From assembly GCF_004010195.1 (NCBI RefSeq), contig NC_057719.1, positions 20,632,870 through 20,696,869 of the forward strand: a stretch of 64,000 nt of DNA. The letters are read 5' to 3'. The notes beneath the pieces were generated by a model. It ran no database searches, had not been told where the DNA came from, and worked only from the letters and a program-made list of their open reading frames with translations. The translations under genes were made by a program, and so were the position numbers. Shown here piece by piece: positions 1 through 53,409 of this stretch; the first letter of the stretch is position 1; each line of letters starts with the position of its first letter. The DNA comes from Chiloscyllium plagiosum (Eukaryota).

Positions 1-192
1 TCACCTTGACCTCTTTCCATCTATCACATTTCCAACGCCCCTCCTCCATGTCCCTCCTCCCTACCTTTTATCTTCTCCTGCTGAACACTCTCTGCTCATT
101 CCTGAAGAAGGGCCTGTGCCCGAAACGTCGAATCTCCTGTTCCCTGGATGCTGCCTGACCTGCTGTGCTGTTCCAGCAATAAAGTTTCAACT
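1..192 (+). mobile_element. Penelope-like element 3' terminal repeat (pLTR) fragment, truncated by window start
   Basis: Pyrimidine-rich tract, then CCTGAAGAAGGGCCTGTGCCCGAAACGTCG...GATGCTGCCTGACCTGCTG...TCCAGCA; the same terminus follows the GIY-YIG region at 3420-3551 and 9236-9333. Confidence 0.85.
98..133 (+). ncRNA. Minimal type I hammerhead ribozyme motif in PLE terminus
   Basis: Stem I ATTC(98-101)/GAAT(130-133); CTGAAGA 102-108; extra A; stem II GGGC-ctgt-GCCC; GAAAC 122-126; GTC triplet 127-129; palindromic ACGT stem III. Confidence 0.8.
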
Positions 193-1539: not shown

Positions 1540-3551
1540 CCGAGAGTCGAGAGTGTAGTGCTGGAAAAGCTCAGCAGGTCAGGCAGCATAGGAGGAGCTG
1601 GTGAATCGATGTTTCGGGTATAAGCCCTTCATCAGGAATGAGACTTGTGGGTTGGGCCTAAGAATAAATGGGGAGAAGGTAGCTGGGAAAATTATAGGTG
1701 GATGAAAGTGAGGGAGAAGGTGATAGGTCGGCGGGGGGGTGAAGTGATGGATGGGTCCAGAGGGCGGTGCTGAGTTGGAAGCTAATGAACCCCACACTGC
1801 CCGATTCTACCGCCTTCCTAAGATTCACAAACCTGACTGCCCTGGTCGACCCATTGTCTCAGCCTGCGCCTGTCCCACTGAACTCGTGTCTTCCTACCTT
1901 GACACGGTCCTGACCCCTTAGTCCAGGAACTCCCCACGTACTTTTGTGACACCACCCATGCCCTTCACCTCCTTCGTGATTTTTAGTTTCCCGTCTCATC
2001 TTCACGATGGACATCCAGTCCCTGTATGTATCGATCCACCACGACGAAAGTCTCAAGCACTCAGTTTCTTCTTCATGCCATCCCAACCAGTACCCTTCCA
2101 CCGATGCCCTCATCCGACTGGTTGAACTGGGCCTCACCCACAACAATTTCTCCTACCAAACTTCCCACTTCCTCCAAACCAAAGAGGTAGCCATTGGCAC
2201 CTGCATGGGACCCAGCTATGCCTGCCTGTTTGTCGGATATGTGGAACAGTCCATCTTCCGCAATTATACTAGGACCGCCCCCAACCTGTTCCTCTGCTAC
2301 ATCGACTGGACCTCTCCATCACGTCTCTGGTGACCGATTAACACAGACAGATACTCCAAGCCCACTGACTCCCACAGCTACCTAGACTACAACTCCTCTC
2401 ACCTTACCTCTTATAAAAACACCATTCTTTACTCCCAATTCCTTCACCTCTGTTGCATCTGTTCCCAGGATGACCAATTCCACCTCACACAGTCCCAGAC
2501 GGCCTCCTTCTTCCACAATCGCAATTTAATTTCCCACGTGGTTGATGATGTCCTCCAGCGCATCTCCTCCACTTCATGCACCACTGCCCTTGAACCCAAC
2601 TGCTTCCAACGCAACAAGGACAGAACTGCCCGGTCCTCACCTGACACCCCACCAACCTCTGCATACATCGCATCATGCTCCGCCACTTCTGCCATGTCCA
2701 AATGGACCCCACCACCAGAGATATATTTCCTTCCCCACCCCTATCTGTATTCCAAAAAGGGCATGCCCTCTGTGACTCCCTCGTCAGGTCCACACTCCCC
2801 ATTGGCCCACACTCCATTCCTGGCACCTTTCCCTGCTGCTGCAGGAAGTACAAAACCTGTGCCCACACCACTCCCCTTACGTCAGTCCAAGGCCCCAAGA
2901 GATCCTTCCATATCTGTCAGAAATTTACTTGCACTTCTACCAATAACTTCTACTGCATCCGTTGCACCTGGTGTGGTTGCCTCTACATCGGGGAGACAGG
3001 ATGCCTTCTTGCGGATCGTTTCAGAGAACATCTCTGGGACACCCGCACCCAACAACCCCACCGCCCTGTGGCAGAACACTTCAGCTTGCCCTTCCACTCT
3101 GTCATGGACATGCAAGTTGTAGGCCTCCTCCACCGCCAAACCGTAACCACCTGATGCCTGGAGGAAGAACGCCTCATATTCCGCCATTGGTCCCTGCAAC
3201 CACACGGGATAAATGTGGATTTCAACAGCTTCCTCATTTCCCCTCCCCCCACATTATCCCAGTCCCAAGCCTCCAACTCGGCACCGCCATCTGGACCCGT
3301 CCATCAATCTCCCTCTGATCTATCACCTTCTCCCTCGCCTTCATTCAACTATCACTTTCCCACTACCTTGCCCCCAGCCCCGCCTCCCTCCCATTTATCT
3401 CTCAGCCCCGACCCACAAACCTCATTCCTGATGAAGGGCTTATGCCTGAAAAGTCAATTCTCCTGCTCCTCAGATGCTGCCTGACCTGCTGTACATTTCC
3501 AGCACCACACTCTTGACTCTGATACTCCAGCATCTGCAGTCCTCACTTTTT
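1540..3551 (+). mobile_element. Penelope-like retroelement (Neptune-like), 5'-truncated, decayed RT plus GIY-YIG, with inverted pLTR at left end
   Basis: RT motifs [44 protein letters not shown]; Cys linker FPCCCRKYKTC; GIY-YIG YCIRCTWCGCLYIGETG...RFREH; 1540-1785 is reverse complement of the 3' end; TSD CCCATCAA(C/A)TAAATG at 1525-1539 and 3552-3566; frameshifted. Confidence 0.92.
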
Positions 3552-4051
3552 CCCATCAAATAAATGTGCGTGTTTTCAGGCTAGTATGACCAAAAGCAAA
3601 GTGACTTTTGATATGCGCTCAAGTAAACCCCAGTTAATGACAGCCATCTTTAGGCACCTGAACACAATTATCAGTATGGGGGTGGGATTGTATACTCTTG
3701 CAGTGGAATGGGAGTATCCTAATTTCCAGACCAGGAGGCTGGGTTTAATTCCCCTTGCACCAGGGGTGTATGATAACATTTCTGTACAGGTTGATTGGAA
3801 AATACTATATGGTAATTGCTCAGGATTACAGCCCATTATCCATTCACTGCTTTTAGTTGGCAATGTTAGCTCTGGAAAGCCCATGTATTCAAATGCAAGA
3901 TTTAGAGGCTGGTAAAGGCCTCTGACAGGAAGTGTTTATAAAGATATATATTTAAACACAAATATATGCTTACTCATTTTTAGCTTTAATCTGCAAATGG
4001 TCATTAATGCTTTTAGCATATTCCAATTGTTGAGGTTTGGTCTCCAATTTA

Positions 4052-4288
4052 TGGAGAAAGTGAGGACTGCAGATGCTGGAGATCAGAGCTGAAAATGTGT
4101 TGCTGGAAAAGCGCAGCAGGTCAGGCAGCAAACAGAAAGGTCTAGGAAGGGGAGGGAGGAGTCCGAGACTGTCCGAGACTGCACACCCCAGGTCATCTCC
4201 TCTGCACAGAAGCTCTTCAGCCACATTCTGAAGCAGACTCGTTACCACAGCCATATCTCCTTTCTCAGCACCTGCCTACGGAGACAGT
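4052..4288. mobile_element. PLE fragment: inverted pLTR end joined to probable N-terminal ORF segment
   Basis: GGAGAAAGTGAGGACTGCAGATGCTGG pLTR end; then + strand RDCTPQVISSAQKLFSHILKQTRYHSHISFLSTCLRRQ, resembling PLE ORF N-termini; 10-bp duplication GTCCGAGACT at the junction. Confidence 0.6.
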
Positions 4289-5925: not shown

Positions 5926-6343
5926 ATGATGTGGAGGGGCTGGTGTTAGACTGGGTGGACAAAGTTAAAAACCACACAACACCAGGTTATAGTCCAATAG
6001 ACTTATCTGGAAGTACTAGCTTTCGGAGCGCCGTTCCTTCATCAGGTAGCTGGTGGGACAGGATCATAGGACACAGAATTTATATTAAAAGATCACAGTG
6101 TCATACAATTTACATATTAATGAATTGAAACCTGCAACCAATTCTAAAAGATGAAAAACTTAATAGCAATCTAGATTTGTTCAATATATCACATGTTGTA
6201 TGGCATTATAATCTTTTGCTATAAATTCTGTGTCCTATGATCCTGCTCCACTAGCTATCTGACAAAAGAGCAGCACTCTGAAAGCTTGTACTTTCAAATA
6301 AACCTGTTGGACTATAACCTGGTATTGTGTGATTTTTAACTTC
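5926..6343. mobile_element. Fold-back PLE-terminus element, second family (AGCT-type hammerhead)
   Basis: Left arm 5960-6110 is reverse complement of right arm 6195-6343; same terminus as 52210-52315 and 48513-48543. Confidence 0.75.
6013..6048 (-). ncRNA. Minimal hammerhead ribozyme motif (AGCU stem III variant)
   Basis: Reverse strand TAC-CTGATGA-A-GGAAC-GGC-GCTCC-GAAAG-CTA-GTA; one mismatch in stem II. Confidence 0.6.
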
Positions 6344-8058: not shown

Positions 8059-9333
8059 GCGAAAATGAGGACCGCAGATGCTGGAGACCAGAGTTGAAAA
8101 ATGTGGCACTGGAAAAATGCAGCAGGCCAGGCAGCATCCAAGGAGTCCTTCTTCAGGAATGAGGCTGGTGTGCCAGCTATACCTGCCTCTTCGTCGGATA
8201 TGTGGAACAGTCCATCTTCCGCAGCCACACTGGCACCAACCCCACCTTTTCCTCCGCGACATCGATGATTGTATTGGCGCTACCTCGTACTCCTTGAACA
8301 GTTCATCCACTTTACTAACACCTTCCACCCTGACCTCAAATTTACCTGGACTGTCTCAGACTCCTCCCTCCCCTTCCTAGACGTCTCCATTTCTATCTCG
8401 GGCAACAGACTCAACACAGACATTTACTACAAACCGACCGACTCCCACAGCTACCTAGATTACACTTCCTCCCACCCTGCCCCCTGTAAAAACGCCATCC
8501 CATATTCCCAATTCCTTCACCTCTGCCATATCCGCTCCCAGGAGGACCAGTTCCACTACCAGTCCAAATAGCGTCCTTTTTCAAAGACTGCAATTTCCCC
8601 TCCGACGTGGTCAACGATGCTCTCCACCGCATCTCCTCCACTTCCCGCACCTCCGCCCTTGAAGTCAGATCCACACCCCCCACCAACCCAACCTTTACTC
8701 GCGGCACCTTCCCCTGCAACCGCAAGAAGTGCAAAACTTGCGCCGCACCTCCCCCCTCACATCCCTCCAAGGCCGCAATGGATCGTTCCATATCCATCGC
8801 AAATTCTCCTGCACTTCCACACATATCATTTACTGTATCTGCTGCACCCGATGTGGTCTCCTCTACATTGGGGAGACAGGCCGTCAACTTGCGGAACGTT
8901 TCAGGGAACACCTCTGGGACACCCGCACCAACCAACCCAACCACCCTGTGGCTGAACACTTTAACTCTCCCTCCCTCTCCGCCAAAGACATGCAGGTCCT
9001 TGGCCTCCTGCATCGCCAGATCCTGGCCACATGACGCCTGGAGGAAGAGCGCCTCATCTTCCGCCTAGGAACCCTCCAACCACACGGGATGAATGCAGAT
9101 TTCTCCAGCTTCCTCATTTCCCCTCCCTCCACCTTATCTCAGTCCCAACCCCCGGATTCAGCACCGCCCTCTTCCCAGTGCCCCTCCCCCAAATCCCTGC
9201 CCCACCTTTTATCTCGGCTCGCTTGGCACACCAGCCTCATTCCTGAAGAAAGGCTTATGCCTGAAATGTCGATTCTCCTGCTCCTCGGATGCTGCCTGGC
9301 CTGCTGCATTTTTCCAGCACCACACTTTTCAAT
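8059..9333 (+). mobile_element. Penelope-like retroelement fragment (Neptune-like) with inverted pLTR
   Basis: CLFVGYVEQ, FLRDIDD, LPFLDV, YYKPTDSHSYL, YCICCTRCGLLYIGETGRQLAERFREH; inverted terminus 8059-8177; perfect 15-bp TSD TTTAATATTCCATAG at 8044-8058 and 9334-9348. Confidence 0.92.
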
Positions 9334-9557: not shown

Positions 9558-10800
9558 TGAATGTAGGTTTGCTCGCTGAGCTGAAAGGTTCATTTTCAAA
9601 CGTTTTGTTACCTTACTAGCTAATATCTTCAGTGGACCTCTTGCAAAGCAATGCTGAAAATTCCTGCTTTCTATTTATATGTTTGGGTTTCTTCGGGGTT
9701 GGTGATGCCATTTCCTGTGATGATGTTATTTCCTGTGGTGAAGTCACTTCCTGTTCCTTTTCTCAGGGGGTGGAAGATGGAGTCTAACTCGATGTGTTTG
9801 TTGATAGAGTTCCGGTTGGAATGCCATACTTCTAGGAATTCTCGTGCATATCTTTGTTTGGCTTGTCCTAGGATGAATGTGTTGTTCCAGTCGATGTGGT
9901 GTCCTTACTCATCCATATGTAAGGATACTAGTGAGAGAGGATCATGTCTTTTTGTGGCTAGTAGGGTGAAAATTCTCGGGTGAAAAAGCAAACGCACTAT
10001 TTACAGATACCAACACTTACTAACAAGTGGTGGTAGACCCTACCCCACAACTAGAGAACCAAATCACAGCCCTACTCAAAAAACTTCAGAAATCTGGACA
10101 AATAAATAAGACCGACTTCCAAAAAATGAAACCAGATGGATCCAACACACCACGCTTCTACAGATTACCCAAAATTCACAAACCAGGAGCCTCCCTCAGA
10201 CCCATAGTCTCGCTGCCTGGAACACCAACTTACAGAATGGCCAAGGAACTAGACCAAAGACTAAAACACTTAGTAGAAGACTCACACCACTCCATCCAGT
10301 CCACCCAAGAATTCTTGAAGACCATCAAAGACACTAAGATAGAAGAGGATGAAATAATGGTCTCCTTTGATGTAACAGCCCTGTTTGCTTCAATCAACAT
10401 TAACCTGGCCAAGGAAACACTGACTACACAATTAGAAGACCCAAAAACACACACACCAAACACCACTAACTTCATCAACAAGGAGAATATCATCAAGCTA
10501 GTGGACCTATGCCTTACCACCCACTTCACCTTCAACAATAAAACTGACAGACAAACCAATGGAACACCTATAGGATCTCCGATATTGGGGTTCTTAGCAG
10601 AGGCAGTAATGCAGAGACTTGAGCAAACAGCTCTGCCAACCATCCAACCCAAACTCTGGGTCCGTTACGTCGTCACTAAATGAAACAAATTAGAGGAAAC
10701 CTTCAAGACCATTAATAATACCCTTACTGGCATAAAATTCACTAAAGAGGAGGAAAACAACAACAAACTGCCATTTCTAGATGTCACAGTTTATCAAAAC
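9558..10800. mobile_element. Penelope-like retroelement, second clade (Poseidon-like), with internal inversion
   Basis: 10027-10683 + encodes [47 protein letters not shown], then KLPFLDV; 9558-9965 is the 3' end on the minus strand (AREFLEVWHSNRNSINKH) with degraded hammerhead CTGAAGA...AAACGTTT. Confidence 0.88.
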
Positions 10801-15620: not shown

Positions 15621-16089
15621 CAAGGTTTTCAGAGATTAAAAAATAGTCTTAAGCAATTCTAAATTCCTATTTGCCATGATTTATTGACATTTCTTAAGGT
15701 TTTGCACTTTGAAGGAATTTATAGTTGTTGTTAGCAGCCGAACAAGCAATGAATGGCCTTTAAAGAACTAGTCCTATCTTTTAATATCTTTTCAATCCAC
15801 ATCAGCTATTTCTTGTGTCATGCCTTCATAATGTCCCTTATTCAAATTTAACAACCTTGCTTCAGATTGAACTACCCCCCTCTAAAATAAAATATAAAAT
15901 TCTATCATATTGTGTAAGTCATTCCGACATGTTATTTTCATACAAAGATTATCTATTAGTCCTTTTCCGTTACATAATATGAGATCTAAAACAGCTTATT
16001 GTAGTTGACTTCTCAGTAGACTGATCTAGAACACCAACCTTAATACAGTATGGAAACAGCCCCTCCACAACTTGGTTGCTCAATTACCA

Positions 16090-17395
16090 TTGGCAATGAT
16101 CTCTTCACTGTCAACGGGAGTGGTACCAGGGGACTGGAGAGTGGCGAATGTTGTGCCCCTGTTCAAAAAAGGGAATAGGGATAACCCCAGGAATTACAGG
16201 CCAGTTAGTCTTACTTCGGTGGTAGGCAAAGTAATGGAAAGGGTACTGAGGGATAGGATTTATGAGTATCTGGAAAGACATTGCTTGATTAGGGACAGCC
16301 AGCACGAATTTGTGAAGGGTAGGTCTTGCCTTACAAGTCTTATTGAATTCTTTGAGGAGGTGACCAAACATGTGGATGAGGGTAGAGCAGTGGATGTAGT
16401 ATACATGGATTTTAGTAAGGCATTTGATAAGGTTCCCCATGGTAGGCTTGTGCTGAAAGTCAGGAGGCGTGGGATAGAGGGAAATTTGGCCAATTGAATA
16501 GAAAACTGGCTAACCGGTCGAAGTCAGAGAGTGGTGGTAGATGGCAAATATTCAGCCTGGAGCCCAGTTACAAGTGGAGTTCCGCAGGGATCAGTTCTGG
16601 GTCCCCTGCTGTTTGTAATTTTTATTAATGACTTAGATGAGGGAGTAGAAGGGTGGGTCAGTAAATTTGNNNNNNNNNNNNNNNNNNNNNNNNNNNNNNN
16701 NNNNNNNNNNNNNNNNNNNNNNNNNNNNNNNNNNNNNNNNNNNNNNNNNNNNNNNNNNNNNNNNNNNNNNNNNNNNNNNNNNNNNNNNNNNNNNNNNNNN
16801 NNNNNNNNNNNNNNNNNNNNNNNNNNNNNNNNNNNNNNNNNNNNNNNNNNNNNNNNNNNNNNNNNNNNNNNNNNNNNNNNNNNNNNNNNNNNNNNNNNNN
16901 NNNNNNNNNNNNNNNNNNNNNNNNNNNNNNNNNNNNNNNNNNNNNNNNNNNNNNNNNNNNNNNNNNNNNNNNNNNNNNNNNNNNNNNNNNNNNNNNNNNN
17001 NNNNGAGAGTGCTAGGCTTTTTCTCGTTGGAACGGCGAAGGATGAGGGGTGACTTGATCGAGGTTTATAAGATGATCAGAGGAATAGATAGAGTAGACAG
17101 TCAGAAACTTTTTCCCGGCTTACAACAGAGTGTTACAAGGGGACATAAATTTAAGGTGAAGGGTGGAAGGTATAGGGGAGATGTCAGGGGTGGGTTCTTT
17201 ACCCAGAGAGTGGTGGGGGCATGGAATGCGCTGCCTGTGGGAGTGGTAGAGTCAGAATCTTTGGTGACCTTTAAGCAGCAATTGGATAGGTACATGGATG
17301 GGTGCTTAAGCTAGGACAAATGTTCGGCACAACATCGTGGGCCGAAGGGCCTGTTCTGTGCTGTATTGTTCTATGTTGTATGTTCTATGTTCTAA
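16090..17395 (+). mobile_element. Young 5'-truncated CR1 (HER1-like) LINE spanning an N-gap
   Basis: VPGDWRVANVVPLFKKG...[55 protein letters not shown]; tail (TTCTATG)n. Confidence 0.95.
16670..17004. other. Assembly gap (335 N) inside CR1
   Basis: N run. Confidence 1.
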
Positions 17396-18279: not shown

Positions 18280-18472
18280 ACTACAAAAACAGAAGTAGCT
18301 GAAAAAGCTCAGCAGGTCTAGCAGCATCTGTGAAATCAAAATTCACATCATCGGACCGGAAATGTTAACTCTGATTTCTCTCCACAGATGCTGCCAGACC
18401 TGCTGGATTTTTCCAGCTACTTATGTTTTTGTTTCTGATTTGCAACATCCACAGTTCTTTCATTTTTTTAAA
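18280..18472. mobile_element. Fold-back PLE-terminus-like element (GTTAAC family)
   Basis: ACAAAAACAGAAGTAGCTGAAAAAGCTCAGCAGGTCTAGCAGCATCTGTG mirrored by CACAGATGCTGCCAGACCTGCTGGATTTTTCCAGCTACTTATGTTTTTGT; related to 19240-19375 and 27667-27770. Confidence 0.7.
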
Positions 18473-18494: not shown

Positions 18495-19172
18495 TATAGA
18501 TCATGTACATAGATCCCTGAAAGTTGCCACCCAGGTTGATAGGGTTGTTAAGAAGGCAAATGATGTGTTAGCTTCTATTTGTAGAGGACTGAGTTTTGGA
18601 GCCACAAGGTCACATTGCAGCTGTACAAAACTATGGTGTGGCCGCTCTTGGAGTATTGCATACAGTTCTGGTCACCGCATTACAGGAAGGTCGTGGAAGC
18701 TTTGGAAAAGGTAGAAAAGATATTTACTAGGATGTTGCCTAATATGGAGGGAAGGTCTTATGAGGAAAGGCTGAGGGAGTTGAGGCTGTTTTCATTAGAG
18801 AGACAAAGGTTGAGAGGTGACTTAATTCAGACATATAAAATAATCAGAGGGTTAGATAGGGCAGACAGTGAGAGCCTTTTTCAAGAGATGGTGATGGTTA
18901 GCATGCAGGGATATAGCTTTAAACTGAGGAGTGATAGATATAGGACAGATGCCAGAGGTAGTTTCTTTACTCAGAGAGTAGTAGGGGTGTGGAACACACT
19001 GTCTGCAACAGTGGTAGGCTCGCCAACTTTAAGGACATTTAAATGGTCATTGGATAAACATATGGATGAAAATGTGATAGTGTAGGTTAGATTGGCTTCA
19101 GATTGGTTCCACAGGTTGTCAAAACATTGAGGGCCGAAGGGTCTGTACTGCGCTGTATTGTTCTATGTTTTA
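18495..19172 (+). mobile_element. CR1 LINE 3' fragment
   Basis: LYKTMVWPLLEYCIQFWSPHYRK, RLRGDLI, FFTQRVVGVWN; GGGCCGAAGGG tail. Confidence 0.92.
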
Positions 19173-19688
19173 CATCTGTTCTCGGCATGACTACATTGAA
19201 GAAATTCTGCTCCTCTCTCTGACAGGATTTCTGTTATTAAGGAGGAAGCGTCACCAGGCCTGAAATGTTAACTTCGATTTCTCTTCAGGGATGCTGCCAG
19301 ACCTGCTGAGCTTAATCAGCAACTTCTGCTTTTGTTTCTGATGTACAACATCCGCAATTCCTTTGGTTCTTTTTACCACAAAACCATTGTTGTCTGTCAG
19401 GAAAAGCCCATCTGGTTCACTAATATCCTTTAGAAAAGAGACTTCCGCCTTTCCCTGGTGTGTCCTACATGTGAGTCCAGACCCACAGCAATGTGGTTGA
19501 TGCTTAACTGCCCTCTGCGCAATTAGGGCTGAGTAGTAAATGATGGCCTAGCCAGTGACACCCAAATCCTGTGAATGAATTTTTAAAAAGTCAATGCAAG
19601 CTCTCTTCCTTCATTAGGACTTTATTCAGAAATCCATTTATCTTGAAACGCTATTTGCAAAAGAGTATTTCTGTTGAGTTTACAGTCA

Positions 19689-19820
19689 CTGGTTCCTGAG
19701 GAAGGGCTGATGCCCGAAACATTGATTCTCCTGCTCCTCGGATGCTGCCTGACCTGCTGTGATTTTCCAGCACTACACTCTCGACTCTGATCTCCAGCAT
19801 CTGCAGTCCTCACTTTCTCC
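19689..19820 (+). mobile_element. PLE pLTR-only insertion with hammerhead core
   Basis: CCTGAGGAAGGGCTGATGCCCGAAAC; TSD TGAGTTTACA(G/A)TCA at 19675-19688 and 19821-19834. Confidence 0.85.
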
Positions 19821-20363: not shown

Positions 20364-20585
20364 GGAGAAACTGAGGACTGCAGATGCTGGAGATCAGTGT
20401 CAAAAAGTATGATGCTGGAAAAGCACAGCCAGACAGTCAGCATCTGAGAAGGAGGAGAGTTGATGTCTCAAGCATGAGCTCTTCATCATCCTGGATAATG
20501 AAGAGCTTATTCTGGAAATATCGACTTTCCTGCTCCTCAGATGCTGCCTGATCAACTGTGCTTTCCCAGTACCACATTTTCTGAC
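20364..20585. mobile_element. Older fold-back PLE-terminus element
   Basis: Two inverted pLTR arms meeting at ~20490 (CTCTTCATCA...TGAAGAGCT). Confidence 0.75.
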
Positions 20586-22151: not shown

Positions 22152-22358
22152 AGCTGAAAATTTGTTGCTGGGGAAGTGCAGCAGGTTAGGCAGCATCCAG
22201 GGAACAGGAGAATCGACGTTTCGGGCATAAGCCCTTCTTCAGGGTTTATGCCCGAAATGTCGATTCTCCTGTTCCCTGGATGCTGCCTGACCTGCTGCGC
22301 TTCGCCAGCAACACATTTTCAGCTCTGATCTCCAGCATCTGCAGACCTCACTTTTTCC
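22152..22358. mobile_element. Young fold-back PLE-terminus element
   Basis: Near-perfect inverted arms centred at ~22240; perfect 14-bp TSD TGACAGAACGTCAG at 22138-22151 and 22359-22372. Confidence 0.9.
22211..22244 (-). ncRNA. Minimal hammerhead ribozyme motif
   Basis: Reverse strand CC-CTGAAGA-A-GGGC-TTAT-GCCC-GAAAC-GTC-GATT; stem I weak. Confidence 0.65.
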
Positions 22359-27666: not shown

Positions 27667-27770
27667 TTCTGAAGAAGGGTCACTGGACTCGAAACGTTAA
27701 CTTTGCTTTCTCTCCACTGATGCTGCTAAACTTGCTGAATTTCTCCAGCAATTTCTAGTTTTGTTTTAGG
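27667..27770 (+). mobile_element. PLE-terminus fragment with hammerhead core (GTTAAC family), adjacent to a decayed DeuSINE head (27520-27660)
   Basis: CTGAAGA(27669-27675)-A-GGGTC-ACTG-GACTC-GAAAC-GTT-AAC. Confidence 0.7.
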
Positions 27771-28886
27771 TTCAGACTCTTTATGGCCTTTTTAAAAATC
27801 ATTTGGGGACTGTAGTATTCCCAGGATTTCCTTGTCCATTCCTGCTTGCCCTTGAGAATATAATGGCAAGTTTTCTTCTTGGAACTTCCATTTACATACA
27901 CATACAATGTTCTTAAGGAGGGAGTTTCAGGATTTTGATCAAATAACAGTAAAGGGTAACCAATATATTTCCAATCAATGTTATGTTTTTATTACTTCTT
28001 TAGATGTTGGAATAATTGGCTAGATCAACACTTATTAACCATCCTTAATTATCTGGCTATTGCTGCTTTCCCTTAACAATATCCAAAAAGGTATATAGGC
28101 TTGAAAGGGGAATGGTCAAATGAAACATCTGCATTTCCTGCTCACAATTACCTGTCTTCCTGGTAGTGAATCAACTCTTCTCTGTCTATGTAGTCCTGAC
28201 TGGTGATAACCACCTCACTAAACGTGCTATTCTTGACATGCTCTGCCTCATGGATGCCTCATGGGGAGTCCATCCAGAGGTCGAGACACCCTTTGTGGCA
28301 AATCAGGAGTTGTAGCTGAACACACCTCCTGCATACATAGTCACCGTGGACACTGGAATGTCCCTGATTCCCACATATTGCAGGAGGAGCATGCTAAGAA
28401 GCCAAGTTCTCCTGCCATGTCAAACATTATCAACTACAGACAACAGATTACACAACTTACCCACTAGTCACCAAGATCAGGTTTCTCAATTCCTCACAGA
28501 CTACAACTACTAAAGGGAAGTACATTATCTCTCTCAAGGACTGCTAACTCAGTCTACAAACTTGGTTCCTGAGCAGCTATGAATATGATCCCTTTCTCAG
28601 TTATGCTGACTGAGCTGACTTCTTCCAGAATGCTCCTTGGGCACTTTTTACAACCTCCTCTGTTGGATGCTCTTCCACCTGATGAGTGCTGGGTTCACTG
28701 CAATCCTCTTCTCAGTCGTGGCTGAACTGACTTCTCCTCAAATCCACCTCTCACCTGTATCCTCTATTGGACTAGATGGTGAATGGTCTGAAGTTCAGGG
28801 GTAATTGGGAAGGTCTAAGCATTGTCAAGGCAAAGGTGTTCAGTGGAGTGATTGTGGGGTAGTCAGATGTATAGTTACCTAAATAG

Positions 28887-31109: not shown

Positions 31110-32887
31110 GGATGGATTACTCCCAGTGCTATGAGCTAGTGAGGGCAGGAATAAGAGGATAGAGCAGATGAATGCATGGCTGAGGAGCTGGTGTATGGAA
31201 GAAAGATTCACACTTTTGGACCATTAGAATCTCTTTTGGAGTTGAAGTGACCTGTACAAGAAGGACGGATTGCATCTAAATTGGAAGGGGACTAATATAC
31301 TGGCAGAGAAATTTGCTACAGCTGCTCAGGAGGATTTAAACTAGTAAGGTGGGGGGTGGGACCCAGGGAGATAGTGAGGAAAGAGATCAATCTGAGACTG
31401 GTACAGTTGAGAACAGAAACAAGTCTAACAGTCAGAGCAAGCAGGGACAAGGTAGGACTAATAAATTAACTGCATTTATTTCAATGCAAGGGGCCTAATA
31501 GGGAAGGCAGATGAACTCAGGGCATGGTTAAGAACATGGGACTGGGATATCATAGCAATTACAGAAACATGGCTCAGGGATGGGCAGAACTGGCAGCTTA
31601 ATATTCCAGGATACAAATGCTACAGGAAGGATAGAAAGGGAGGCAAGAGAGGAGGGGGAGTGGCANNNNNNNNNNNNNNNNNNNNNNNNNNNNNNNNNNN
31701 NNNNNNNNNNNNNNNNNNNNNNNNNNNNNNNNNNNNNNNNNNNNNNNNNNNNNNNNNNNNNNNNNNNNNNNNNNNNNNNNNNNNNNNNNNNNNNNNNNNN
31801 NNNNNNNNNNNNNNNNNNNNNNNNNNNNNNNNNNNNNNNNNNNNNNNNNNNNNNNNNNNNNNNNNNNNNNNNNNNNNNNNNNNNNNNNNNNNNNNNNNNN
31901 NNNNNNNNNNNNNNNNNNNNNNNNNNNNNNNNNNNNNNNNNNNNNNNNNNNNNNNNNNNNNNNNNNNNNNNNNNNNNNNNNNNNNNNNNNNNNNNNNNNN
32001 NNNNNNNNNNNNNNNNNNNNNNNNNNNNNNNNNNNNNNNNNNNNNNNNNNNNNNNNNNNNNNNNNNNNNNNNNNNNNNNNNNNNNNNNNNNNNNNNNNNN
32101 NNNNNNNNNNNNNNNNNNNNNNNNNNNNNNNNNNNNNNNNNNNNNNNNNNNNNNNNNNNNNNNNNNNNNNNNNNNNNNNNNNNNNNNNNNNNNNNNNNNN
32201 NNNNNNNNNNNNNNNNNNNNNNNNNNNNNNNNNNNNNNNNNNNNNAGGAAAGGCTAGTAGGTATAGGGAATGCTGGATGACTAAAGAAATTGAGGATTTG
32301 GTTCAGAAAAAGAAGGAAGCATATGTAAGGTATAGGCAGGATAGATCGAGTGAATCCTTAAAAGAGTATAAAGGAAGTAGGAGTATACTTAAGAGGGGAA
32401 TCAGGAGGGCAAAAAGGGGACATGAAATAGCTTTGGCACATAGAATTAAGGAGACTCCAAAGAGTTTTTACAAATACATTAAGGACAAAAGGATAACTCG
32501 GGAGAGAATAGGGCCCCTCAAAGATCAGCAAGGCGGCCTTTGCGTGGAGCCACAGAAAATGGGAGAGATACTAAACGAGTATATTGCATTAGTATATACT
32601 GTGGAAAAGGATATGGAGATATAGAAAATAGCGAAATAGATGGTGACACCTTGTAAAATGTCCAGAGGGTGGTACATGTATAGAATGAGCTGCTAGAGGA
32701 AGTGGTGGAGGTTGGTACAATTGCAACATTTAAGAAGCATTTGGATGGGTATATGAATAGGAAGGGTTTGGAGGGATAGGGGCCGGGTGCTGGCAGGTGG
32801 GACTAGATTGGGTTGGGATATCTGGTTGGCATGGATGAGTTGGACCAAAGGGTCTGTTTCCATGCTGTACATCTCTATGACTCTATG
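31110..32887 (+). mobile_element. CR1 LINE: ORF1 3' end, ORF2 AP-endonuclease start, gap, internal deletion, 3' end
   Basis: DLYKKDGLHLNWKGT (esterase-like ORF1); CIYFNARGL...DIIAITETWLRDG...YRKDR...GGGVA (APE); KETPKSFYKYIK; jump at ~32660 to 3' UTR with (CTCTATGA)n tail. Confidence 0.9.
31666..32245. other. Assembly gap (580 N) inside CR1
   Basis: N run. Confidence 1.
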
Positions 32888-38118: not shown

Positions 38119-38234
38119 GACAAAGTGAGGACTGCAGATGCTGAAAATCAGAGTCAAAAAGTGAAGTGCTGGAAAAGCTCAGCGTTCGAGGAGCAGGAGA
38201 GTCAACGTTTCAAGCATGAGCTTTTCATCAGGAA
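38119..38234 (-). mobile_element. PLE pLTR-only insertion
   Basis: AAAGTGAGGACTGCAGATGCTG terminus; perfect 13-bp TSD TGTTCCTGTGAAG at 38106-38118 and 38235-38247. Confidence 0.85.
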
Positions 38235-39464
38235 TGTTCCTGTGAAGTTGATCACTTTTTCCCATCATCCTTAGCTGTTCATCATTCCAGTACAGTGTAG
38301 GAACTAATATGGCTACAAGGACTATTTGATCCAATTGTATATATAACAAAACAGAAGACTATTCCTCATGTCAGACAGGAATCTCTCACACCAACAAGAA
38401 AAAATCCACTCACCAATCTGTCTTCTGCACCCATCAGAGATGCTGCAATAAATCAAATGGAGTAGTGACTAGTGAAAATAAATTCCAGCCCAGCCTCTGC
38501 TTCAGCACTTTCTCATTCCCCAAAGTGGCATGATGATGCTAGTATGTTTGAGACCTTGATCTTTCCACAACAAAAAGACAATTCCAACAAAGGCATCTTA
38601 AGGACTTATTGAAATGATACTTCAACTCAAAATGCCATTTCAGTTTAGCTGCTTTCTTGGCATTGTCATTTAGCAGTGTTGCTTTCCACCATTTTGCAAA
38701 ATCCTTTTCAGTGCCAATTCATTGGACAAACATGACTAGGCGAATCATATGGGAAATTAAGCAAGCCCTTCATCGATGTTGGATACAAGAAATTGTGTGT
38801 TCAAACTAAGCTCTAGAATTCACGACTAGGTTCTCATGAGTGATCAGCGAGAGGTCTATCACTCATTAGCATTCGTTAATCCCATTTCACTAATATGCAC
38901 TCTCCTATTCCATTAGTCACTAGATAGAAATTAGAAGCTGAGAATTCTTCACATGAAAGTCAGAGCAAACATCCTGTGACTTCAGCGCTCCTCCGGATCT
39001 CTGTTTATGGTAGTAGGCACCAATGTCTCAGGGTAGCTGTGTTACTCTTGTTCTAGGGGTGCTGGTGTCTGGCACATACCAGGTTTTTTGCACCATCATA
39101 ACATATTTTCAATCGAGTTACAGTAACCTCCACCACCATGCTAAACTCTGGGCACACTGACAACTATTGTCAGAATGGATGTTGCAAGGATACCTAGTGT
39201 CTCGGGGAAGACATCCAATTCATTGATTGGATTTCATGAAGAATCTTGGGGCTAGTCCTTTCCTGTCTTAACATTCACTTACATTGCACCTACTTGAAGG
39301 CAGCCACCATCCCTGTTAACCTTGCCTTGTCTTTTAATGTTCTACTCACTCAGCCACAGTGTAATAGCTTATAATGATCCTGTCTTGCCATTTAGTCCAG
39401 ACACAAAGCCGGGCATCTTGTCTTAATGGTCAGCAGTCATCAGTCAAAGGGGTAGACATTAACA

Positions 39465-40132: not shown

Positions 40133-40168
40133 AATCGACGTTTCGGGCAAAAGCCCTTCATCAGGAAT
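40133..40168 (-). ncRNA. Minimal hammerhead ribozyme motif
   Basis: Reverse strand ATTC-CTGATGA-A-GGGC-TTTT-GCCC-GAAAC-GTC-GATT. Confidence 0.72.
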
Positions 40169-41014
40169 AAAGGCAGAGAGCCTGAAGCATGGAGAGATAA
40201 GCTAGAGGAGGGTGGGGGTGGGGAGAGAGTAGCATNNNNNNNNNNNNNNNNNNNNNNNNNNNNNNNNNNNNNNNNNNNNNNNNNNNNNNNNNNNNNNNNN
40301 NNNNNNNNNNNNNNNNNNNNNNNNNNNNNNNNNNNNNNNNNNNNNNNNNNNNNNNNNNNNNNNNNNNNNNNNNNNNNNNNNNNNNNNNNNNNNNNNNNNN
40401 NNNNNNNNNNNNNNNNNNNNNNNNNNNNNNNNNNNNNNNNNNNNNNNNNNNNNNNNNNNNNNNNNNNNNNNNNNNNNNNNNNNNNNNNNNNNNNNNNNNN
40501 NNNNNNNNNNNNNNNNNNNNNNNNNNNNNNNNNNNNNNNNNNNNNNNNNNNNNNNNNNNNNNNNNNNNNNNNNNNNNNNNNNNNNNNNNNNNNNNNNNNN
40601 NNNNNNNNNNNNNNNNNNNNNNNNNNNNNNNNNNNNNNNNNNNNNNNNNNNNNNNNNNNNNNNNNNNNNNNNNNNNNNNNNNNNNNNNNNNNNNNNNNNN
40701 NNNNNNNNNNNNNNNNNNNNNNNNNNNNNNNNNNNNNNNNNNNNNNNNNNNNNNNNNNNNNNNNNNNNNNNNNNNNNNNNNNNNNNNNNNNNNNNNNNNN
40801 NNNNNNNNNNNNNNNNNNNNNNNNNNNNNNNNNNNNNNNNNNTCCTCTAGCTTATCTCTCCATGCTTCAGGCTCTCTGCCTTTATTCTTGATGAAGGGCT
40901 TTTGCCCGAAACGTCGATTTTGCCTGTCCTCGGATGCTGCCTGAATTGCTGTGCTCTTCCAGCACCACTAATCCAGAATCTGGTTTCCAGCATCTGCAGT
41001 CATTGTTTTTACCT
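40135..41014. mobile_element. Young fold-back PLE insertion spanning an N-gap
   Basis: 40135-40235 is reverse complement of 40843-40920; perfect 13-bp TSD AGCCATGTTTTAA at 40122-40134 and 41015-41027. Confidence 0.88.
40236..40842. other. Assembly gap (607 N) inside fold-back PLE
   Basis: N run. Confidence 1.
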
Positions 41015-41307: not shown

Positions 41308-41521
41308 GATTAGTGGTGCTGGAAGAGCACAGCAGTTCAGGCAGCATCCGAAGAGCAGTAAAATCGACATTTTGGGCAAAAGCCTTTCATCATCCCTGAT
41401 GAAGGGCTTTTGCCCGAAACGTCGATTTACTGCTCCTCGGATGCTGCCTGAACTGCTGTGCTCTTCCAGCACCACTAATCCAGAATCTGATTTCCAGCAT
41501 CTGCAGTTATTGTTTTTACCT
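41308..41521. mobile_element. Young fold-back PLE-terminus element
   Basis: Inverted arms centred at ~41394; perfect 15-bp TSD ATCTTCCTGGGGCTG at 41293-41307 and 41522-41536. Confidence 0.9.
41392..41427 (+). ncRNA. Minimal hammerhead ribozyme motif
   Basis: CTGATGA(41396-41402)-A-GGGC-TTTT-GCCC-GAAAC-GTC(41421-41423). Confidence 0.68.
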
Positions 41522-44771: not shown

Positions 44772-45510
44772 CATAGAACATAGAACATAGAAGAATACAG
44801 CGCAGTACAGGCCCTTCGGCCCTCGATGTTGCGCCGATCCAAGCCCACCTAACCTAAATTAGCCCACTATCCTCCATATGCCTATCCAATGCCCGCTTAA
44901 ATGCCCATAATGAGGGAGAGTCCACCACTGCTACTGGCAGGGCATTCCATGAACTCACGACTCGCTGAGTAAAGAACCTACCCCTAACATCTGTCCTATA
45001 CCTACCCCCCCTTAACTTAAAGCTGTGCCCCCTCCTAATAGCTGACTCCATACGTGGAAAAAGATTCTCACTATCGACCCTATCTAAACCCCTAATCATC
45101 TTGTACACCTCTATCAAGTCACCCCTAAACCTTCTTTTCTCCAATGAAAACAACCCCAAGTGCCTCAGCCTTTCCTCATACGATCTTTCTACCATACCAG
45201 GCAACATCCTGATAAACCTCCTCTGCACCCGTTCCAGTGCCTCCACATCCTTCCTATAGTATGGCGACCAAAACTGCACACAATACTCCAGATGCGGCCG
45301 CACCAGAGTCTTATACAACTGCAACATGACCTCAGTACTCCGGAACTCAATTCCTCTACCAATAAAAGCCAGTACGCCATATGCCTTCTTCACCGCACTA
45401 TTTACCTGGGTGGCAACTTTCAAAGATCTGTGTACATGGACACCAAGATCCCTCTGCTCATCCACACTACCAAGTATCCGTCCATTAGCCCAGTACCCCA
45501 TCTTTTTATT
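44772..45510 (-). mobile_element. Young CR1 LINE 3' fragment (open frame to natural stop)
   Basis: ORF 44854-45555: RDLGVHVHRSLKVATQV...LYKTLVRPHLEYCVQFWSP...FFTQRVVSSWNALP; (CATAGAA)n tail. Confidence 0.95.
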
Positions 45511-46944
45511 ACTCTTATAGCTTTTATTACAGTTATAGCTGATAACTGACTCCATTACAAAGCTCCCATCTCTGATCTAGACCTTGCTTTGCATCTATTT
45601 TTAACCTCAATTCAATGCCTATTAACAAGTAACATTGGACAAATACCATTCACTGAGCTCTTGATCTACAAGTTTCACCACTGCTGAAAATATGAGTCAA
45701 CAGTTAATTGGTCATTGTTTAAATCTAATGCTTCAAGCATTCTCAGAACTTTACCCTCCTGTCTGAACTAGGCATGTATGTTTCATGTCATATTGTTGAC
45801 ATTTTTGTTTTTTGGGAATAATTCCTTTCTCACTTGTAATTTGACTCCTTCATTTTGATCTAGTTAATTGTGTATTAACTTAAGGGTGATTAAAATAACA
45901 AAAGTTGTTGCAATTGACTGAATGAGAGCTAGGGAGAGCGGAATGGATTCTCCATTCTCATCTGGCCATAAGAGTACTCATTGTTAAGCCAACAATGTTT
46001 ACACTGACTCAGGCATGTTCATTGGTTGGATAATTGCCTTCCACCCAAAGACCGGCTGAAGGGTGAAATGAAGGTTATTGTGTCAAGATGTCTGGGTATC
46101 TATACCTCCAGTCCACCTGAAAGCAAGTTGTGACGGCATTGATATTGCCAGCTGCAGTGACATTGGGAGGTTGAATTTGGAAGTTGACCACCATGGCATC
46201 AGCCATTATCTTCTCAAATGGATTCAGTAAGTCATTCACAATTTCATACTGAGGCTGGGCATTTGAGGGAGCTCCTCTTCTCTCTCGTAGAAATCTCACC
46301 AAACATACAGTGAACGCTGTCGCAATGCTAATAGCTAATTTAGAGCACAGGAACAGGCAGCCCTTTTTCTGTTCAGTTATGACATGGCTAACACACCTTG
46401 ACTCCGTTTATCTACCTTTGATTCAATGTCTTTGATATATTTGTATTAGGTGAGGGTATGAAACTTAGTGCTGAAGATGTTATTTCATCTATTGTTCACT
46501 GCCTTTGTGAGATAAGTGTTGAGAATTCTACTATCATTTTCATGTAAAAGTGCTTCCTAATCTTACTCTTAAATAACCTGGCTCTAATTTAAAGATTTTA
46601 TCCTCTAGTTCTGGATTTTCAGATGAGAGGAATTAATTTCCCTCAATATGCCTTTGGTTTAACAGTCTAAAATACTCAATGAGAACTTTCCAATTTTAAG
46701 CCAATACACAAAAAGCTCATGCAACTTTTCATCATTAACACTTCAACCCTGTGCTCCTGGCAAATCTTTCTAAGACCAATATGTTTCAACTTTAATAACT
46801 ATATTATTAATTAGATGTCAGTTAAATTATTTAAAATTATGCTAAATTATAATGGAGAGAGAAACAATGACATCTGCTTTAATCTCCAAGTTTGAACAGT
46901 TGGATTTGACCATACTTTTGGGTAAGTGTCATTTTGTTGAGTTT

Positions 46945-48500
46945 CATAGAACATAGAACATTACAGTGCAGTACAGGCCCTTCAGCTGACCTGTGGAACC
47001 AATCTGAAGCCCATCGATCCTACACTATTCCATTTTCATCCATATGTTTATCCAATGACCATTTAAATGCCCTTAAAGTTAGCGAGTCTACTACTGTTGC
47101 AGGCAGTGCGTTCCACGCCCCTACTACTCTCTGAGTAAGAAACTACGTCTGATATCTGTCCTATATCTATCAACCCTCAATTTAAAGTTATGTCCCCTCA
47201 TGCTGACCATCACCATTCATGGAAAAAGGCTCTCCCTGTCCACCCTATCTAACCCTCTGATTATCCTATATGTCTCAATTAAGTCACCTCTCAACTTTCT
47301 TTTTTCTGACAAAAACAGCCTCAAGTCCCTCAGGCTTTCCTCATAAGACCTTCCACCATGCCAGGCAACATCCTAGTAAATCTTTTCTGCACCCTTTCCA
47401 AAGTTTCCACATCCTTCCTATAATGCGATGACCAGAACTGTACACAATACCTCAAGTGCGGCCGCACCAGAGTTTTGTACAGCTGCAGCATGACCTCGTG
47501 GCTCCTAAACACAATCCCTCAACTCATAAAATCTAACACACTGTCTGCCTTCTTAACAACTTGAACAACCTGGGTGGCAACTTTCAGGGATCTATATACA
47601 TGGACACCAAGATCTCTCTGCTCATCTACATTACCAAGAATCTTATCATTAGCCCAGTACTCTTTATTCCTGTCACTCCTTCCAAAGGGAATCACCTCAT
47701 ACCTTTCCACATGCCACTCGCAGCCCAGCTCTGCAGCTTATACATGTTCCTCTGCAACCTGCAACATCCTTCAGCACCATTCACAACTCCATCAACCTTT
47801 GTGTTACCTGCAAATTTACTAACCCATCCTTCTACTCTCTCATTTAAGTCATTTATAAAAATGGCAAACAGCAGTGGACCCAAAACTGATCCTTGCAGTA
47901 CACCACTAGTAACTGAACTCCAGGATAAACATTTCTCATCAACCACCACCCTCTATCTTTTTCCAGCAAGCTATTTCTGATCCAAACCACTAAATCACCC
48001 TCAATACCATGCCTCCATATTTTGTGCAATAGCCTACTGTGGGCAAACTTATCAAACACCTTACTGAAAAACAAATACGCCACATCAATCTGTTTGGTCA
48101 CCATCTCAAATAACTTAATCAGGTTTGTCAGGCACAGCCTACCCTTCACAAAACCATGTTGACTATCCTTAATCAACGTATTCCTGTCGAGATGATAATA
48201 AATCCTGTCTCTTATAACTTTTTCCAAAACTTTACCCACAACCAAAGTAAGGCTTACTGGTCTACAATTACCAGGGTTGTCTTTATTCCTCTTCTTGAAC
48301 AAGGCAACAACATTTGCGATTCTCCAGTCTTCTGGCACTATTCTTGTAGACAATGATGACATAAAGATCAAAGCCAAAGGCTTGGCAATCTCCTCCCTGG
48401 CTTCCCAGATTATCCTAGAATAAATCCCATCCAGCCCAGGGGATTTACCTGTTTTCACACTTACACCTCATCCTTGAGAATCTCAATCCCATCTAGTCTA
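46945..48500 (-). mobile_element. CR1 LINE RT fragment
   Basis: [55 protein letters not shown]. Confidence 0.93.
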
Positions 48501-51799: not shown

Positions 51800-52315
51800 T
51801 ATGAGTGTCTGTGAGAAAGTGTGTGTATGTGCACGTGTGTGTGAGTGTAAAGGGGTATAAGGCCGTGAGAGGGTGTGTATGTGGGTGTGTATGTGTGAGC
51901 GTACGAAAGAGAGTTTGTGTATGAGAGAGGGTATGGGTCTGTAGGAGTGTGTGCATGTTTGTGTGTGTGTGAGAGAGAGGGAGTGAGCATGTGTAGTGCT
52001 GTGGGGTCGCCTGTAATGTGACATGAACCCCAAGGTCCTGGTTGAGGTCCGGGACATTCAACCTCAGATATTCGGGTGGCCATCCTCCAAGGTGGACTTT
52101 GGGACAAGCAACAACGCAAAGTGGCCGAGCAGATGCTGATAGTCTAGGACCTTGGGTTCCTGTTGCACTACAAGTGAGTCTACTGCACTGCAACACACAC
52201 ACACACACACTCCAAAAGCTAGTACTTCCAAATAAACCTGTTGGACTCTCATGTGGTGTTGTGTGCTTTGTAACTTTGTACACCCCAGTCCAACACTGGC
52301 ACCTCCAAATCATGA
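51800..52315. mobile_element. PLE fragment (AGCT-hammerhead family) with TG/CA-rich tracts, inserted in CR1
   Basis: TG-rich tract 51800-51990; CA run 52192-52210; terminus AAAGCTAGTACTTCCAAATAAACCTGTTGGAC...CCAAATCATG shared with 5926-6343; degenerate flanking duplication TTATCC.GAAA. Confidence 0.65.
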
Positions 52316-52534
52316 TTATCCTGAAAGTGTGAAGGGATGCATTTTAGGAGGTCAAATGCAAGAGGAAAGTATACAGGAAATGGCAGGACCCTAAGGAGAA
52401 TTGATATTCAGAGGGATCTTGGGCCACATGTCCATAGCTCACTGAAGGTGGCAACACAAGTTGACAAAGTGGTGAAGAAAACATATGACATGCTTATCTT
52501 CATTGGTCCGGGCATTGAGTATAAAATTTGGAAG

Positions 52535-52962
52535 GAGAAAGTGAGGACTGCAGATGCTGGAGATCAGAGCTGAAAATGTGTTGCTGGAAAAGCGCAGCAG
52601 GTCAGGCAGCATCCAAGGAGCAGGAGAATCGACGTTTCGGGCATGAGCCCTTCTTCAGGAATGAGGAAAGTGTGCCAAGCAGGCTAAGATAAAAGGTAAG
52701 GGAGGAGGGATTTGGAGGAGGGGTGTTGGAAATGTGAAAGGTGGAAGGAGGTTAAGGTGAGGGTGATAGGCCAGAGTGGGGGGTGGAGAGGTCAGGAAGA
52801 AGATTGAAGGTTAGCAAGGCGGTGCTGAGTTTGTGGGTTGGGACTGAGACAAGGTGGGGGGAGGGGAAATGAGGAAACTGGAGAAATCTGAGTTCATCCC
52901 TTGTGGTTGGAGGGTTCCTAGATGAAAGATAAGGCGCTCTTCCTCCAGCCGTCATTTTCAGC
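52535..52962 (-). mobile_element. Young PLE 3' fragment inserted in CR1
   Basis: Full pLTR end at 52535; reverse strand RLEEERLIFHLGTLQPQGMN; perfect 15-bp TSD TATAAAATTTGGAAG at 52520-52534 and 52963-52977. Confidence 0.9.
52627..52662 (-). ncRNA. Minimal hammerhead ribozyme motif
   Basis: Reverse strand ATTC-CTGAAGA-A-GGGC-TCAT-GCCC-GAAAC-GTC-GATT. Confidence 0.72.
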
Positions 52963-53409
52963 TATAAAATTTGGAAGTTGTGTTGCAGCTACATAAAACT
53001 TTAGTTCAGCTAAATTTGGAGTATTGTGGGCAACTCTGGTCACCATACTATGGGAAGGATGTGGAGGCTTTGGAGAGGGTGCAAAGGAGGTTTTCCAGGA
53101 CGTTGTTTGGATTGGAGTGTATTAGCTATAAGGAAAGGTTGGACAAACATGGATTATCTTCACTCAAGCGTCGGAGAAGTAACTTGATGGAAGTATGTAT
53201 AAGTAAGAGAGGCATGGATGGAGTGGATAGTTGGAGTCATTGTTTTCCCAGGGTGGAAATGTCAAAAGCTTTGGGGCATAGGTTTAAGGTGAGAGGGGGG
53301 TTAGCTTAAAGGAGACATGCGAGGCAAATATTTTACACAGAGATTGGTAGGTGCCTGGGGAGAAATAGAAGCAGATAAGACAGCAATGTTTACGAAGCAT
53401 TTGGATAGA

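Follow-up and report, generated by a model that had tools for sequence, protein, structure and literature searches.

The motif at positions 98–133 of the 64-kb stretch of DNA analysed here (the window) is almost certainly a minimal type I hammerhead ribozyme carried by a Penelope-like element (PLE) in its 3′ terminus. Our preferred reading, to which we assign a probability of about two in three, is that it belongs to a PLE family with a C-terminal GIY-YIG nuclease and a linker of the Neptune/Nematis type, in which the hammerhead is selected in active source elements and carried as cargo in dispersed copies that would arise by the stepwise mechanism described below.

On the plus strand, stem I pairs 98–101 with 130–133 (4 bp in this copy) and encloses the CUGAAGA box (102–108), which is followed by an unpaired extra A109. 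Stem II (110–113 with 118–121) also has 4 bp and is closed by the 4-nt loop CUGU. GAAA occupies 122–125, the ACGU palindrome 125–128, and C17 is C129, with cleavage predicted between C129 and G130. The extra base after A9 (A109) and the G10.1–C11.1 pair (G110–C121) are both present, as is a palindromic 15.2/16.2 stem III without loop 3, which reads ACGU here and AGCU in a second family. The same anatomy is given for PLE minimal hammerheads in the accessible text of PMC4209133: type I, CUGANGA plus one extra base, G10.1–C11.1, GAAA-NN-UH, and a palindromic 15.2/16.2 with no loop 3.

Several searches set this motif apart from chance. A loose pattern gave 21 matches in the window against 7.30 ± 2.71 across 100 shuffles, none of which reached 21. 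Our structural descriptor found 11 strict matches, seven with a palindromic stem III, compared with 0–1 matches in 25 Markov controls, where palindromic ones were absent (0/25). The published minimal-hammerhead descriptor, taken from the available part of the PMC4209133 supplement (CUGANGA and GAAANNUH boxes, stems I and II of at least 3 bp), matched at 102(+) and 6045(−) in the window and gave zero matches in 100/100 controls. With stem I relaxed to at least 2 bp, it yielded 10 matches, and one match in 1/100 controls; most sister copies fall short of the published 3-bp minimum for stem I, which the 98–133 copy passes. The intact core that had been predicted at 98–133 is thus real, on the direct reading, the published-descriptor match and the 100 empty controls. 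Four further cores called intact from the letters alone were recovered as such by the structural descriptor (C3 at 22242(−), 40164(−), 41396(+) and 52658(−)). Their stem I consists of just 1–2 adjacent pairs, and those at 22242 and 41396 sit within long inverted-repeat hairpins. The Infernal-type search that had been suggested as a check gave no such confirmation, as an Rfam scan of the window at E ≤ 1 returned no hammerhead match. It produced four weak miRNA-hairpin matches, three of them on inverted pairs, which we discarded as far below gathering scores.

Folded in isolation, 98–133 forms stems I and II (−7.1 kcal/mol). In the context 60–200, the pair probability of stem I drops to 0.01–0.02, whereas that of stem II remains at 0.94–0.96. 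The 4-bp stem I originally described holds for this copy but not for the family, in which two adjacent pairs are followed by a pyrimidine mismatch (U-U or U-C): A132, which completes the 4-bp helix, is found in 1 of 19 copies, as is each of the loop letters C114 and G116. A stem I of two pairs in the family, below the descriptor's 3-bp minimum, and a 4-bp stem II are also the differences from the PMC4209133 set as far as it is accessible. The idea that the stem stays fixed while loop II varies was not borne out either, since in a gapped recount non-CpG differences amounted to 16/125 in stem II vs 11/72 in loop II; a gap-free count of differences from the majority letter gave 26/152 cells and 13/76, respectively, with one row of the 19, 13880(−), out of register. 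Stem II changes mostly keep pairing (90.6% of cells paired). In a covariation count across copies and families, with the two second-family (family-B) rows out of register, the scores were equalled or exceeded in 28/500 shuffles (82.1% paired) and 17/500 shuffles. By direct reading, pair 2 of stem II alternates between G-C and A-U, and stem III between ACGU and AGCU.

The element carrying the motif (Table 1) is tied to a coding PLE through its relatives in the window. Its copy shares 167 of 195 aligned bases with the copy at 52533–52760(−) and has 74.5% identity with the GIY-YIG-linked copy at 3428 across 161 bp; this similarity stops near 187, and the 5′ part lies outside the window. At 3428, 9243 and 61728, homologous termini come after decayed GIY-YIG frames, which stand 200–300 bp upstream of the hammerhead termini and share their strand. 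The Pfam model PF01541 matched frame 8663 above its cutoff (E 2.7e-5) and frame 62049 below it (E 5.9e-4). Frames 2645 and 2334 had no Pfam match, and frame 2645 is 58% identical over 118 aa to the Pfam-positive frame 8663. A CX2-5CxxC motif upstream of the nuclease can be read directly in frames 2645–3154 and 8490–9068. The combination of a C-terminal GIY-YIG with internal cysteines and this upstream motif is that of Neptune/Nematis-type elements. In the part of Craig et al. 2021 (PMC8557442) available to us, the upstream CX2-5CxxC is a Neptune/Nematis feature, and the EN+ PLEs of this type share with our family the C-terminal GIY-YIG, the two core cysteines and the CX2-5CxxC, as well as inverted 5′-truncated copies and a tail at one end. 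We take the probable clade from these nuclease and linker features, as the window holds no reverse transcriptase (RT) of the family. ATG frames near the motif were not tied to any ORF start. Elsewhere, at 10024–10683(+), there is an RT fragment (PF00078 below cutoff) for which no linked terminus was found and which we take to be PLE-like.

Table 1 Features of the motif, its element and related copies in the window
Feature	Positions	Strand	Remarks
3′ terminus of PLE copy, pLTR-type, tail-less class	1–187	+	Extends past left window edge
TTAT, possible TATA-like element	68–71	+	About −30 from A98
Initiator-like motif	96–102	+	A98, first ribozyme base, is the inferred transcription start
Stem II with 4-nt loop	110–121	+	Sole helix forming reliably; pair probabilities 0.94–1.0 alone and in context 60–200
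5′-truncated PLE with decayed GIY-YIG frame and tail	2028–3555	+	Hammerhead at 3428, stem III broken
Second hammerhead family, head-to-head pair	5936–6342	.	6045(−) core intact, AGCU palindrome, CUA triplet
PLE insertion, inverted short tailed arm and GIY-YIG-bearing arm	8059–9333	.	Hammerhead at 9243; 15-bp duplication
Solo stub, ~130 nt	19689–19820	+	Starts 3 bases before core; 14-bp duplication with 1 mismatch
Head-to-head pair	20364–20584	.	Junction at core 5′ edge; one-arm tail; finder detected no duplication
Head-to-head pair	22152–22358	.	Minus-arm core intact, locked in hairpin; 14-bp duplication; one-arm tail
Third family	27668–27790 (3′ end approximate)	+	Core intact; stem II 5 bp, stem I 2 bp; 5′ end just before core
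Solo stub	38119–38235	−	Starts at inferred start base; core intact, GUU triplet; 13-bp duplication
Inverted insertion across N gap	40135–41014	.	Minus-arm core intact; 13-bp duplication
Head-to-head pair	41308–41521	.	Plus-arm core intact, in hairpin; 15-bp duplication; one-arm tail
Long tailed copy	52533–52962	−	Core intact, C3 52658, predicted cut 52631/52630; 15-bp duplication; read-placement reference
5′-truncated PLE with GIY-YIG remnant	61603–62863	−	Broken core at 61728

The claim of more than 20 PLE termini was upheld by a profile search, which gave 26 matches at E ≤ 1 (25 below 0.01) and none on the reversed window; three copies of the second hammerhead family add to these. Short and long copies share the same three subfamilies. 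The insertion features of EN+ PLEs, namely an inverted 5′-truncated arm, a tail at one end and a target-site duplication, are all present. Duplications of 13–15 bp flank 8 of the 18 insertions examined, as scored by a finder for which 4 of 60 random intervals did as well (three top control scores of 20), and the same finder gave nothing convincing at the other 10. A 35–40-nt tail occurs on one arm only in all seven head-to-head pairs, as described for PLEs in the literature accessible to us. The arms of two of these pairs are identical at 78/84 and 73/76 positions, their junctions are near-palindromic, and 3-base overlaps occur at two head-to-head junctions. No head-to-tail tandem (at least two units, each with a hammerhead) was found among the 26 profile matches. 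In the accessible text of PMC4209133, minimal hammerheads are likewise mostly single dispersed motifs, with opposite-strand pairs and several consensus families per genome.

Both long arms of the second family (5936–6342 and 52208–52296) have TATAA 39 bases before the core. The third family (18283–18463, 19241–19358, 27668–27790 and 56545–56602) shares the downstream block and has a 5-bp stem II, and its copies at 19241 and 27668 likewise begin at the core 5′ edge. Most or all of the ribozyme is missing from the arms 8061–8175(−) and 4053–4131(−), in one of them via an internal deletion of ~30 bases. The inverted arm 40135–40164(−) extends 2 bases beyond the predicted cut and directly abuts the 13-bp duplication, its end belonging to neither of the usual 3′ end classes; as this end lies past the cut, we did not count the arm as a cleavage product. 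The window also contains many LINE fragments (16030–17314, 18585–19085, 31465–32624, 44854–45576 and 47853–48467, with an RT match at 16030), presumably CR1-like, and four N gaps totalling 2022 bases, mostly within repeats. The segment 53419–53790 resembles the reverse strand of a tRNA-derived SINE.

To look at conservation, we used the 20 main-family copies found by their downstream part alone (24 rows from which four third-family rows were dropped; 40164(−), without a downstream part, is absent and represents a sixth intact core outside the set). Of these, 18 span the cut and five are fully intact. Non-CpG core cells differed in 3/165 cases vs 18.3 expected from base-matched downstream rates, a count to be read with its small numbers, the trimming of core mismatches at 5′ edges by local alignment, and the relatedness of the two arms of a pair. 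Preferential conservation of the core, one of the expectations attached to the original prediction, was thus found, at subfamily level. None of the core differences is shared between copies, and the three private ones compare with 4.0 expected in a low-power singleton test. CpG cells differ at similar rates in the core (4/18), in stem III (12/36) and downstream (12/38). Because the core is without shared changes while CpG sites decay, selection appears to have worked on the source elements, with no visible effect in dispersed copies: the sources probably kept the core, and their dispersed copies decay. An earlier version of this comparison (4/173 vs 127/708) was set aside as circular, since the copies had been picked by their core; it was also gap-free and had one row misregistered.

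The original prediction also envisaged many sites able to cut any passing transcript. We consider it very improbable that the dispersed copies are active ribozymes cutting the host transcripts that cross them. Some eight intact or near-intact cores of three families occur in the 64 kb, the 98 copy has a better stem I than its family, trans-dimers between abundant RNAs are conceivable, and the PLE family is present on both strands in the RNA of a related organism (RNA run X11, 4039 of 12,955,460 records, 95% of them continuing into unlike sequence). Against this, a stem III with zero loop cannot form in a monomer, stem I hardly forms in context (0.01–0.02), CpG decay strikes G12 and stem III at the background rate, and intact same-strand cores lie 1.9–27.6 kb apart, the nearest to 102 within the window being at 27.6 kb. 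In X11, no listed site is one where many molecules begin or end; given the threshold (one fifth of depth) and the library type (poly(A) single-cell, from another organism), this argues only against frequent cutting. As reported in the accessible part of PMC4209133, monomers showed no detectable cleavage and dimers low cleavage. The two head-to-head pairs that were folded gave hairpins of −159.5 and −163.6 kcal/mol. With 5 of 20 copies intact, and because copies are either monomers or lie within long hairpins, host-transcript cutting is not supported. The earlier interpretation thus holds for identity (a PLE-terminal minimal type I hammerhead with palindromic stem III), multiplicity and core conservation, but fails for the cutting of host transcripts.

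The 5′ boundaries of the copies provided further clues. Among 21 main-family arms, eight reach well upstream and 12 are short; the arm at 4131, without a ribozyme region, was left out. Relative to C3, the hand-read 5′ ends of the short arms lie at −19, −7, −5, −4, −3, −1, +1, +1, +1, +2, +7 and +8, such that 11 of 12 begin within −7 to +8 and none at the cut (+28). Counted per insertion, the two arms of one pair not being independent, 8 of 9 short insertions fall within 16 bases (p 4.5e-5 by simulation against a uniform null from −60 to +60). One of the 12 short arms (38231) begins at the inferred start A, which may there belong to the duplication, and window copies have no clear extra G at the boundary. 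The TTAT upstream recurs at −28 to −32 in 8/8 long arms (7 insertions), a count made without a control, and the sequence at the boundary is, in our judgement, a match to the YYANWYY initiator consensus.

The same boundary appears in records from other organisms (contig runs X5 and X6 and the RNA run X11; 0.05–0.21 of sampled words) placed on 52500–52980, with 140,790 records for X5 and 129,489 for X6. Among the loose ends listed for X5 and X6 (six per run, with 1245 rows beyond those listed and some left uncounted), one alone lies upstream of the ribozyme, namely 52662 (514 and 568 records), the base equivalent to A98 and thus the first of the ribozyme. The flanks beyond it are AT-rich and heterogeneous (agreement 0.31) and begin with a sense-strand G as majority letter, a position that is biased because the first loose letter cannot match the reference letter and for which only the majority letter is given. 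Both listed 5c joints from 52662 also start with that G. For full-length L1, an additional G found at 5′ junctions has been ascribed to the cap (PMC11702581, accessible text). In X11, the loose consensus at 52662 is G-rich and resembles other subfamilies or inverted arms. The 3′ ends at 52533–35 and 52573–78 correspond to the two end classes. One listed head-to-head joint (2 and 6 contigs, 2-base ambiguity) connects 52662 to the base immediately following the cut, 52630, and would mean that some templates were cleaved; other joints near 52630 end at 52614, 52619 and 52627. Rare head-to-tail joints in the relatives' contigs connect 52661/52662 to 52533–52569 (93–129-nt unit), including 52661 to 52533/4 with a 128–129-nt unit in 6–12 contigs per row, and such tandems could form a dimeric ribozyme. 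As a separate observation, 153–174(+) and its homologous copies contain CTGAC, a pyrimidine tract and CAG, resembling a branch point and 3′ splice site, and a second CCAG lies in the tail; no joints indicating splicing at the CAG near 174 were found in X11 reads.

We tentatively suggest, at somewhat less than even odds, that RNA of this PLE family has the first hammerhead base as its 5′ end. The ~95- and ~130-nt stubs would then be run-off cDNAs of capped, uncleaved RNA, made mostly on uncut templates with a small minority stopping at the cut, and the ribozyme would act as a switch, gated by protein or by dimer formation, that takes off the first 32 nt together with the cap and is not required for insertion. 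The common boundary might instead be a reverse transcriptase stop or template switch just past stem II, the end of short non-autonomous masters or, in part, the alignment edge of diverging subfamilies. The window 5′ ends indeed scatter across 16 bases, subfamilies diverge just upstream of ATTC, and the X11 loose consensus resembles subfamily sequence; short masters are possible since head-to-tail joints of the 128–129-nt unit exist. We nevertheless find this rather unlikely. Duplications directly abut short copies, the boundary recurs in three subfamilies that all have long copies too, and the initiator-like and −30 motifs are in register with it. The X5/X6 flanks are AT-rich and heterogeneous, whereas subfamily sequence on that strand would be purine-rich, and a hairpin should stop reverse transcriptase on its 3′ side. 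A start at the ribozyme was not found as an explanation of stub boundaries in the literature searched, which covered few subscription papers; neither the start site nor stub 5′ boundaries are mapped in the accessible text of PMC11167929. In parts of other sources, the Drosophila start site is placed 46 bp upstream of an intron (PMC2377424) and general 5′ truncation is described (PMC8969392).

With a start at the ribozyme, insertion can be pictured as follows. Transcription of the pLTR would begin at the A98-equivalent, which would make the ribozyme nucleotides 1–36 of a capped RNA. By analogy with the Poseidon element PAc of Anolis carolinensis, the element protein would nick both strands of an AT-rich target, and reverse transcription would initiate inside the RNA at two sites ~35–40 nt apart, near +95 and +130. 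For that element, the available text of Frangieh et al. 2024 (PMC11167929) describes nicking and extension of both target strands and reverse transcription starting within the RNA at two sites that bound the tail. Initiation near the RNA 5′ end would run off after ~95 or ~130 nt and leave solo stubs. Two such cDNAs, one per target strand and joined by their 5′ ends, would give head-to-head pairs of which one arm is tailed, and long copies such as 1–187 would result where initiation took place on a ligated circle or in the downstream terminus. At the DNA level, the presumed cDNAs include the ribozyme across the cut site, so that their templates would have been uncleaved or re-ligated. Following the literature, cleavage after C129 would require a second copy or the element protein; on source transcripts it would either take away the cap along with the first 32 nt or cut a precursor with two termini down to unit length, and dispersed monomers would rarely if ever cut host RNA. 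In the accessible text of PMC11167929, the anole hammerhead cleaved only with the element protein, its catalytic mutants left insertion unaffected in vitro, and RNA-seq reads do not end at the cut; dimer cleavage is also credited to PMC5785218, via the available part of PMC6765202.

Two other routes to these copies deserve consideration. In the tentative model of PMC4209133, the main template would be a cleaved and re-ligated unit-length circle produced by two terminal hammerheads acting as a dimer, with intact copies reflecting re-ligation. This would explain both the selection of the core in source elements and those long copies that continue past the ribozyme as far as the ORF end, and dimeric constructs do cleave weakly in vitro. 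However, a circle offers no end where stem I begins and leaves the boundary of short copies unexplained, and catalytic mutants had no effect on insertion in vitro in the accessible text of PMC11167929; we judge it unlikely as the main template, although it may still hold for long copies. Quite unlikely, in our view, is the formation of head-to-head pairs by self-priming on an antisense template, a model proposed together with the description of solo pLTRs and palindromic junctions (PMC3846280, in part), instead of by joining of two sense cDNAs. The near-palindromic junctions and the high identity of the arms would fit self-priming, but solo stubs have the same 5′ boundary without an inverted arm, the arms differ in 3′ end class in 7/7 pairs, and the 3-base overlaps at two junctions fit end joining.

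The host is presumably a cartilaginous fish. The PMC4209133 supplement, in its accessible part, has no row for cartilaginous fish. As in our copies, PAc in the available text of PMC11167929 has two 3′ end classes that differ by a 35–40-nt tail, with the hammerhead ~65–100 nt upstream of them, and its copies keep the uncut motif. It differs in belonging to the Penelope/Poseidon clade, whereas the family described here has the CX2-5CxxC linker motif. Non-LTR retrozymes (Li, Clavereau, Pollet 2026, 10.64898/2026.07.22.740005, as far as accessible) are similarly non-coding, PLE-related, type I and dispersed as monomers, but they form head-to-tail tandems, whereas copies in the window occur singly or as head-to-head pairs.

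The motif and its PLE context are already known, such hammerheads having been reported at thousands per genome in fish, coelacanth and Xenopus; our observations bear on the role of PLE hammerheads. If the stub boundaries do represent the capped start of an RNA whose first base is that of the ribozyme, they would provide in vivo support for the in vitro finding that uncut RNA is the insertion template, and solo stubs and one-tailed palindromes would share a single mechanism. The genome would then record template choice in vivo, and the cleaved fraction could be counted from DNA by comparing stub ends at the start base with those at the cut base.
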